Origin: an uncultured Alphaproteobacteria bacterium
GTDB taxonomy: Bacteria > Electryoneota > RPQS01
Direction: 5' to 3'
Assembly (NCBI GenBank): GCA_964530625.1
Contig: CAZHAK010000012.1
Span: 8,654-72,653 of the forward strand
Length of the DNA stretch: 64,000 nucleotides
The notes under the pieces were generated by a model, which searched no databases, was not told where the DNA came from, and saw only the letters and a list, made by a program, of their open reading frames with translations. How positions within the stretch are numbered: position 1 is the stretch's first letter; the number at the start of each line of letters is the position of its first letter. Below are positions 8,180-9,766 of this stretch, piece after piece. The position numbers and the translations under genes are program-made.

Positions 8180-8229
8180 GTTATTACTCCGTGAAGAAAC
8201 GATCAACTGCGCGAGCGCAGCAAAATTTA

Positions 8230-8630: not shown

Positions 8631-8747
8631 CTAACCCTGGCGCTGTTTGTGTTTTTTGGTTCTGGAGCACACGATAAAGACACGGCCGCGACGACGGACG
8701 ATCTTACAGTGTTCACAAATTTTCTTAACGGAAGTACGGACTTTCAT
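8631..8747 (-). CDS. rpmJ: 50S ribosomal protein L36, 38 aa: [38 protein letters not shown].
   Basis: Hand-translated from the minus strand between rpsM and infA. Too short for the ORF track. Shows the C-x2-C...C motif of L36. Confidence 0.85.
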
Positions 8748-8773: not shown

Positions 8774-8992
8774 TTACTTATAGCGGTACGTGATGCGTCC
8801 GCGGCTGAGGTCATAAGGAGACAGTTCCACGGTGACTTTGTCGCCGGGCAGGATCTTAATAAAATGCATGCGCATTTTGCCCGAGATGTGACAGAGAACT
8901 TTGTGTCCATTCTCCAGAACTACGCGAAACGTAGCGTTGGGCAGACACTCCTCGATCACGCCGTCAACCTTAATGGACTGTTCTTTGGAAAT
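8774..8992 (-). CDS. infA: Translation initiation factor IF-1, with an apparent non-canonical ATT start codon.
   Basis: Homology to IF-1 ([29 protein letters not shown] vs E. coli [29 protein letters not shown]) extends 11 codons upstream of the GTG used by the ORF track. Only 5 codons separate the map stop (TAA) from the conserved N-terminus, and the codon at the expected Met position is ATT, preceded by GAGG. Confidence 0.75.
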
Positions 8993-9007
8993 AGGAACCT
9001 CTAATAC

Positions 9008-9766
9008 TTAAACTACGGTCAAAATATCTGCGTCGCCATCCGTGATGACAATTGTATGCTCAAAATGTGCGGCGGGTTGACGGTCGCGCGTCAGCACGTC
9101 CCAATCACCAATCATATCCACTTCCGGTCCGCCCATTGCGATCATAGGCTCAATGGCGATCACCATGTTCTTGCGAAGTAGAGGGCCTTTACCGGGAGCT
9201 CCGTAGTTTGGCACTTGCGGATCTTCCCAAAGACTTTTTCCGATACCGTGTCCCACTAATTCCCGAATCACCGAGAACCCGTGCGATTCCGCGTGTGATT
9301 GGACGGCGTGTCCGATGTTAGACAATCTCCTGCCAGCGCGAGCTTGTTCGATCCCTTTAGCGAGACATTCTTCGGTGACACGAATCAGTTCGGCTTCCCG
9401 TTCACTGATCTTGCCGATGGCGAATGTTCTCGCGCTGTCGGCATAGTACCCTTCATAGATCACGCCCAGGTCAAGTCCGATAATCTGTCCTTCTTCAATC
9501 ACGCGGCCCCTGGGCATACCGTGGACGACTTCTTCGTTGATCGAAAAACAAACGGAGTATGGGAATTTGACGCCATCGCCGTTCGGATGATTCTTGAAGG
9601 CGGGAATGGCTTTCTGTGAACGAATCGTCTCTTCGACAATTTTGTCCACGTCGTCGGCATTCGAGCCCGCGACCATAAGCGGCGCGGCGGCTTCAAACGC
9701 ACTGGCGAGGATTTGCCCTGCTTTGCGCATCAGGCGAATCTCCGCATCCGACTTTATGTGAATCAT
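9008..9766 (-). CDS. map: Methionine aminopeptidase type I.
   Basis: 252 aa, matches MAP1 (…HGIGKSLWEDPQVPNYG…). Confidence 0.9.
   Translation of the reverse strand: MIHIKSDAEIRLMRKAGQILASAFEAAAPLMVAGSNADDVDKIVEETIRSQKAIPAFKNHPNGDGVKFPYSVCFSINEEVVHGMPRGRVIEEGQIIGLDLGVIYEGYYADSARTFAIGKISEREAELIRVTEECLAKGIEQARAGRRLSNIGHAVQSHAESHGFSVIRELVGHGIGKSLWEDPQVPNYGAPGKGPLLRKNMVIAIEPMIAMGGPEVDMIGDWDVLTRDRQPAAHFEHTIVITDGDADILTVV

Follow-up and report, generated by a model that had tools for sequence, protein, structure and literature searches.

The question raised by this locus is where translation of infA, the gene for initiation factor IF-1, begins. In the window, by which we mean the whole stretch of 64,000 nucleotides that was analysed, the open-reading-frame list gives a 61-aa form alone, starting with the GTG at 8959. 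An earlier note on this DNA had proposed that the gene starts at an ATT codon and not at this downstream GTG. On the minus strand, the end of map passes into infA as ACC GTA GTT TAA GTA TTA GAG GTT CCT ATT TCC AAA GAA CAG, and the sequence continues after CAG as TCC ATT AAG GTT GAC GGC GTG ATC GAG. The infA frame opens just five codons before the ATT because the TAA of map is in frame with it, and none of these five codons (0/5) is ATG, GTG or TTG. The direct reading of the minus strand therefore bore out two claims of the note, that the stretch from the map stop to the conserved N-terminus of IF-1 contains no canonical start, and that a GAGG with a short spacer precedes the ATT. The coordinates of the features are given in Table 1.

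We compared the product of the 72-codon frame with the bacterial IF-1 family (TIGR00008 / PF01176). The results showed that it matched NCBIfam TIGR00008 with 121 bits (cut-off, 61.15), with residues 3-71 covering profile positions 1-69 of 69. Residues 1-72 of E. coli IF-1 aligned by tblastn to positions 8992-8777 (E = 1.9e-28), and solved IF-1 chains in the PDB matched from residues 2-72 to residues 2-72 (E = 3.6e-30). The homology thus extends upstream of the first GTG, as the note had stated, since the family model is matched from residue 3 and the solved chains from residue 2. An AF2 model of the protein, with a moderate mean pLDDT of 72.6, had strands at residues 7-17, 21-26, 31-36 and 52-57, a pattern compatible with the OB-fold beta-barrel of IF-1 (about 70 residues). 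Downstream of infA we found rpmJ, rpsM, rpsK, rpsD and rpoA, and upstream of map we found adk and secY. The gene order secY-adk-map-infA-rpmJ-rpsM recurs in relatives, and this position is that of the housekeeping infA locus. No second infA was found in the 64-kb window, where the other two tblastn matches of E. coli IF-1 had E values of 0.096 and 8.4. The window also gave no tblastn match to IF3 (infC) and held no initiator tRNA; its five tRNAs are those for Trp, Thr (two), Gly and Tyr.

Table 1. Positions of the infA start region and its neighbours in the window, together with the corresponding codon 1 and the substitute starts annotated in relatives.
Feature	Position	Strand	Remarks
infA CDS	8774..8992	-	72 codons plus TAA stop (8776-8774); encodes full-length IF-1
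ATT, proposed initiation codon	8990..8992	-	Aligned with Met1 of solved IF-1 proteins
Shine-Dalgarno (SD)-like GAGGT	8997..9001	-	4 nt upstream of ATT (GAGG plus 5 nt); direct sequence reading
map stop, TAA	9008..9010	-	Shares the infA frame; 15 nt before ATT
map, type I methionine aminopeptidase	9008..9766	-	TIGR00500, 275 bits; upstream gene
GTG, codon 12 (Val12)	8957..8959	-	First canonical in-frame start; opens the 61-aa form
rpmJ (L36)	8631..8747	-	TIGR01022, 67 bits; downstream gene
Spurious 46-aa ORF antisense to infA	8864-9004	+	Corresponds to L107 2263-2403
ACG in relatives at the codon aligned to ATT	8992-8990		L005-L008, L051, L053, L059, L080, L081, L088, L091-L093, L095, L102, L105, L106, L118, L119
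Substitute start, P0020/L006			ATA five codons upstream
Substitute start, L118			TTG two codons upstream, almost no spacer after the SD
Substitute start, L119			ATT abutting the SD
Substitute start, P0004/L053			ATG five codons upstream
Substitute start, L105			ATG overlapping the map stop

We then examined where coding begins among relatives of the window. One set of related loci was collected by a genome scan with the Map protein, and another by scanning metagenomes for a DNA pattern whose first codon is codon 3 and which is thus blind to codon 1. Combined, these gave 29 distinct start regions, all with an IF-1 identity of 80% or more. In these 29 regions the protein was conserved over codons 2-16 and the synonymous sites were free to vary. 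Residues K3, E4, I7, K8, D10 and G11 were invariant in relatives, and Gly11 was encoded by GGC, GGT, GGA and GGG. Residue 2 was always Ser, Ala, Thr or Pro, and small residues such as these are what one expects behind an initiator Met that is cleaved off. Positions -1 to -6 showed no amino-acid conservation, and several sequences had stops at -4, -5 or -6. An SD-like motif (GAGGT, GGAG, AGGAG or AAGGAG) preceded codon 1 by 4-10 nt in each of the 30 related loci, and by 4-9 nt in the 29 relatives. We considered as starts, and rejected, two near-cognate codons further upstream, namely CTG (L001, L002) and ATA (L006); neither is conserved, and they overlap the SD or lie before it.

The ATT region was identical in an independent assembly (L107), and ATT was found at codon 1 in nine more assemblies of close relatives (L108-L116). 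ATT behind GAGGTTTCG(T/C) was also present in the genome and metagenome relatives L001-L004, L090, L104 and L117. The comparison of the infA start region across sister genomes thus returned ATT in 10 further independent assemblies, and the identical copy in L107 and the ATT in the nine others ruled out a sequencing error at this codon. The window Map protein and the 61-aa truncated IF-1 were found in many public assemblies. Within 71 codons, infA differed from its close relatives by 0-2 amino-acid vs 17-35 synonymous codon changes, and from the most distant relatives by at most 12 amino-acid and at most 44 synonymous codon changes; these counts show strong purifying selection on infA. ATT is present in every close relative and conservation begins at codon 2, indicating that infA starts at the ATT and not at the downstream GTG, as the earlier note had claimed. 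Judged from these alignments, we assign the start codon to the ATT at 8992-8990 with high confidence, and the ATT start is real and conserved and very probably functional.

The wider lineage showed a second unusual codon at the same position. Codon 1 in the 29 distinct start regions was ACG in 16, ATT in 7, ATG in 3, TTG in 2 and ATC in the remaining one (L062), and further ACG cases were found outside this set (L118 and L119). The ACG-type genes had an SD 4-9 nt upstream and usually an in-frame stop 4-13 codons upstream, without a canonical start in between. Among the 16 ACG-type genes, 24 positions were amino-acid-invariant with at least four synonymous codons available; 23 of them used two to six codons, and codon 1 was the only one that was codon-invariant. 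Thr elsewhere in these genes was encoded by ACC (24), ACG (20), ACT (7) and ACA (3). Since the ACG at codon 1 is codon-invariant and Thr elsewhere is variable, this ACG is constrained at the nucleotide level like a start codon. ACG in the relatives would be a conserved natural bacterial initiation codon, and it is not among the natural bacterial start codons given in one review (PMC4611024).

We constructed a neighbour-joining tree from a single protein, Map, without support values. In this tree the ATT/ATC group, which includes the window, was nested in ACG sequences, with L005 (ACG) as its sister; the ACG clade reached down to approximately 53% Map identity, and the outgroups had ATG or TTG. 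A single substitution separates ATG from each of ACG, ATT and ATC, whereas ACG and ATT differ by two, and the likely path runs from ACG through ATG to ATT. A weak codon thus apparently replaced ATG at least two times in the lineage. The Map proteins of the lineage MAGs were 53-90% identical to the window Map, and their submitters labelled these MAGs 'Calditrichaeota bacterium HK-STAS-AABM5-4', 'candidate division KSB1' or 'bacterium'. A further protein search for a taxonomic label of the second ACG group gave '[bacterium]' labels only. To judge by their isolate names (Skiv and Aved), sister MAGs seem to derive from activated sludge.

A canonical in-frame start upstream of codon 1 was present in a few ACG-type relatives, namely ATG at -5 in L053 and TTG at -2 in L118. 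In L105 (3001-3048) and L106 (579-626), an ATG in frame with infA overlaps the map stop (ATGA) and adds a poorly conserved 15-codon extension, within which the ACG and the SD (there translated as Glu-Lys) are retained. The overlap may have arisen by chance, or it may serve for coupling or as a rescue start. The upstream in-frame ATG extensions in L053, L105, L106 and P0005-P0017 varied in length and sequence. Gene callers demand a canonical start, and protein databases are therefore enriched in such extensions; in the unbiased DNA sample, an upstream in-frame ATG was found in only 2 of 15 ACG loci. An N-terminally extended IF-1, as read from these frames, may be used in some ACG lineages.

Existing annotations of the gene were uneven. 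In sister MAGs, NCBI annotates an IF-1 of 72 aa whose first residues are MSKEQ (P0001-P0003), and in GCA_023382385.1 the annotated infA start is the ATT itself (L117 position 301). The product reported by other gene callers is the 61-aa form, and 142 blocks of a public collection contain it. The gene calls of the L107 assembly, which is from the same organism, omit both infA and rpmJ and have a 46-aa antisense ORF instead. ACG-type genes receive the unlikely substitute starts listed in Table 1 because annotators refuse ACG as a start codon. Across the whole lineage, infA, an essential marker gene, is thus mis-annotated: standard gene callers truncate it to 61 aa or miss it, and the NCBI pipeline mis-starts the ACG-type genes. 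Our full-text literature searches turned up no natural AUU or ACG start for a bacterial infA, and those that included infA or initiation factor 1 turned up no comparable start-codon control of IF1; what they did return were synthetic infA mRNAs with altered start codons (PMC5499595) and the UUG start of chloroplast infA (cited in PMC9845219).

We also examined the sequence around the start and the use of SD motifs in the window. The predicted RNA fold around the start was no more stable than that of shuffled sequence (z = -0.15), and there is therefore no sign of a regulatory hairpin. In a survey of the minus-strand translation genes at 6104-38231, with start sites as in the ORF list, an SD motif (GGAG, GAGG, AGGA or AAGG at -6 to -13) was found in only about 5 of the 25 translation-related genes other than infA. 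In this respect the organism resembles Bacteroidia and looks SD-poor. Among the few window genes with a well-placed SD are infA (ATT) and rpsK, both of which have a non-ATG start, and in such a genome the pairing of a strong SD with a weak codon at infA stands out. The start of rpsK (S11) is most likely the TTG at 8179-8177 on the minus strand (TTG GCA ACT TCC AAG AAA), with GGAG 7 nt upstream; the upstream TTG at 8206 given in the ORF list is probably not the start.

Start-codon autoregulation of IF3 is a textbook mechanism, and a similar one could operate at infA, as the earlier note suggested. We infer that the AUU (8992-8990) would be initiated with fMet-tRNA, steered by the GAGGT, to give a product of 72 residues, and that ribosomes terminating at the map stop probably assist this initiation. 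AUU, AUC and ACG can each be decoded by the initiator tRNA with one mismatch, and IF3, aided by IF1, rejects such one-mismatch initiation complexes. High IF3/IF1 activity would then lead to less infA translation and low activity to more, a negative feedback like that of infC in which the weak codon would tie IF-1 synthesis inversely to IF3/IF1 proofreading. In one account of initiation, IF3 discriminates against non-canonical triplets and IF1, acting alongside IF3, contributes to fidelity at the checkpoint of 50S docking (Gualerzi and Pon 2015, PMC4611024), and the AUU of infC is described as an established target of IF3 autoregulation (PMC5499595).

The near-cognate codon is kept in the lineage and is not an accident, with ACG in a deep clade and ATT/ATC in a subclade. 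The presence of ACG in the wider clade, with ATT/ATC nested inside it, makes infC-like regulation more plausible. Taken as a whole, the explanation of a functional AUU start, a kept weak codon and feedback has our slight preference; the feedback on IF-1 synthesis through the weak codon, considered by itself, is a tentative proposal to which we give a little less than an even chance. The rates that such codons support in E. coli are a difficulty for the explanation. IF-1 is normally abundant, and a start of approximately 4% (AUU) or 1% (ACG), on E. coli values, seems to fit this poorly, unless the weakness of the codon is made up for by SD strength, by coupling or by ribosome properties particular to the lineage. 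In E. coli reporters, AUU gave approximately 4% and ACG approximately 0.7-1% of the activity of AUG (PMC3643588).

Several other explanations were weighed against this one. The AUU could be the true start and merely set a fixed low rate, or make infA depend on map through termination-reinitiation, with no IF1/IF3 feedback; we regard this as rather unlikely, although it is the strongest of the alternatives. The distance from the map stop to the infA start is short (15 nt here and 12-28 nt among the relatives read for spacing), no terminator-like site was found between map and infA, and promoter-like hits there were at chance level, all of which suits coupling. Precedents for a start codon that limits expression are E. 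coli pcnB, which is cited as using AUU simply for this end (in 10.1101/063800), and chloroplast infA, in which a change of UUG to AUG is cited as raising translation 300-fold (Hirose et al. 1999, in PMC9845219). However, a fixed low rate could be attained by a weaker SD or by GUG or UUG, whereas this lineage pairs a good SD with IF3-rejected codons and apparently reached this class of codon at least twice. Coupling alone leaves the conservation of ACG, ATT or ATC unexplained. In addition, IF-1 is described as part of the discrimination machinery (PMC4611024), and some dependence on the level of the factor is therefore hard to avoid.

The remaining alternatives concern whether the AUU is a start at all. 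Translation from the internal GTG would yield a 61-residue IF-1 without the N-terminal segment, and we consider this very improbable, even though the GTG is the first canonical start, gene callers record its product widely, and an AAGGT (8966-8970, minus strand) lies 7 nt upstream of it, so that minor initiation at codon 12 is possible. That AAGGT consists of the codons AAG GTT of the conserved Lys8-Val9, and it is synonymously variable in relatives. Codon 12 itself reads GTG, TTG, CTC, TCA, GCG, GTC, ACA, GTT, ATT, GTA, ACC, ACT or TCG in relatives and is no start codon in many of them; the first canonical start downstream falls, depending on the relative, at codon 9, 12, 17, 21, 24, 25, 26 or 40, the last of these in L006, L080 and L102. 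Codons 2-11 are under strong protein-level constraint, and a start at the GTG would drop residues 7-11, half of the first strand (7-17) in the AF2 model. On this comparison, the internal GTG is probably not a functional start. Recoding, which is about as improbable, would mean readthrough of the map TAA into a Map-IF-1 fusion, a frameshift from map or, where relatives have ACG, conversion of this codon to AUG by C-to-U editing. The window, L006 and L008 have the map stop in the infA frame (frame 0), but the frame is 2 in L001, L002, L005 and L007 and 1 in L003 and L004, and the spacer also varies. The in-frame stop is therefore coincidental and no readthrough or frameshift fusion is conserved, and the well-placed SD speaks for internal initiation. 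We know of no C-to-U mRNA editing of start codons in bacteria. ACG-to-AUG editing is described as creating start codons in plant organelles (PMC9845219), but editing is unable to make AUG from ATT or ATC. The least probable alternative, to which we give almost no weight, is an artefact or decay: the start codon could stem from a sequencing or assembly error, or the gene could be a pseudogene whose functional copy lies elsewhere. Errors can occur in sequence derived from metagenomes, and the window is a single 64-kb part of the genome; against this, the ATT recurs not only in L107 and the nine other assemblies but also in several MAGs. A pseudogene was rejected, as the 72-codon frame is intact, the substitutions show purifying selection, the position between map and rpmJ is kept and infA occurs only once within the window.

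We return to the reading in which the AUU is a functional start that is kept weak. In its fullest form, the near-cognate start of infA would have been long kept, with ACG ancestral and ATT/ATC derived via ATG, and the codon together with a strong SD in an SD-poor genome would act as a fidelity sensor that feeds back on IF-1. A separate class of SD-competent ribosomes, of the kind proposed for Bacteroidia, may also take part. This joint reading is possible, though we think it more doubtful than the feedback taken alone. If it is true, ACG would be the first natural start codon conserved in bacteria whose mismatch lies at the central base, and the ACG start of infA would supply a natural, evolutionarily validated bacterial example. 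A conserved AUU, AUC or ACG start would also make infA a counterpart of the classic infC circuit, wiring a second initiation factor to the fidelity checkpoint that it helps to run.

The arrangement at infA is best likened to the infC type, and the ACG relatives add interest to it. As in infC of E. coli and many bacteria, which starts with AUU or AUC, an initiation-factor gene has a conserved near-cognate start of the kind that IF3 discriminates against, and its product shares in the same discrimination, so that negative feedback is possible. The two systems differ in the gene, as IF1 only assists IF3 in fidelity, in the central-base mismatch of the ACG used by the deep infA clade, and in the context, which is map-infA-rpmJ here and thrS-infC-rpmI for infC. 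Chloroplast infA is the same gene with a non-AUG start, a UUG cited as being translated 300-fold below AUG (Hirose et al. 1999, FEBS Lett 445:169, cited in PMC9845219). Unlike the codons found here, that UUG is a canonical bacterial-type start that IF3 does not reject, and the gene is organellar rather than that of a free-living bacterium. E. coli pcnB shares the AUU start, which in pcnB keeps expression low, but it encodes no translation factor and has no conceptual feedback loop. Finally, infA resembles the genes of coupled ribosomal-protein operons in its 15-nt gap, in the lack of a terminator and in a start that lies within reach of terminating ribosomes, and it differs from them in having a near-cognate start, whereas coupled ribosomal-protein genes normally begin with AUG, GUG or UUG.
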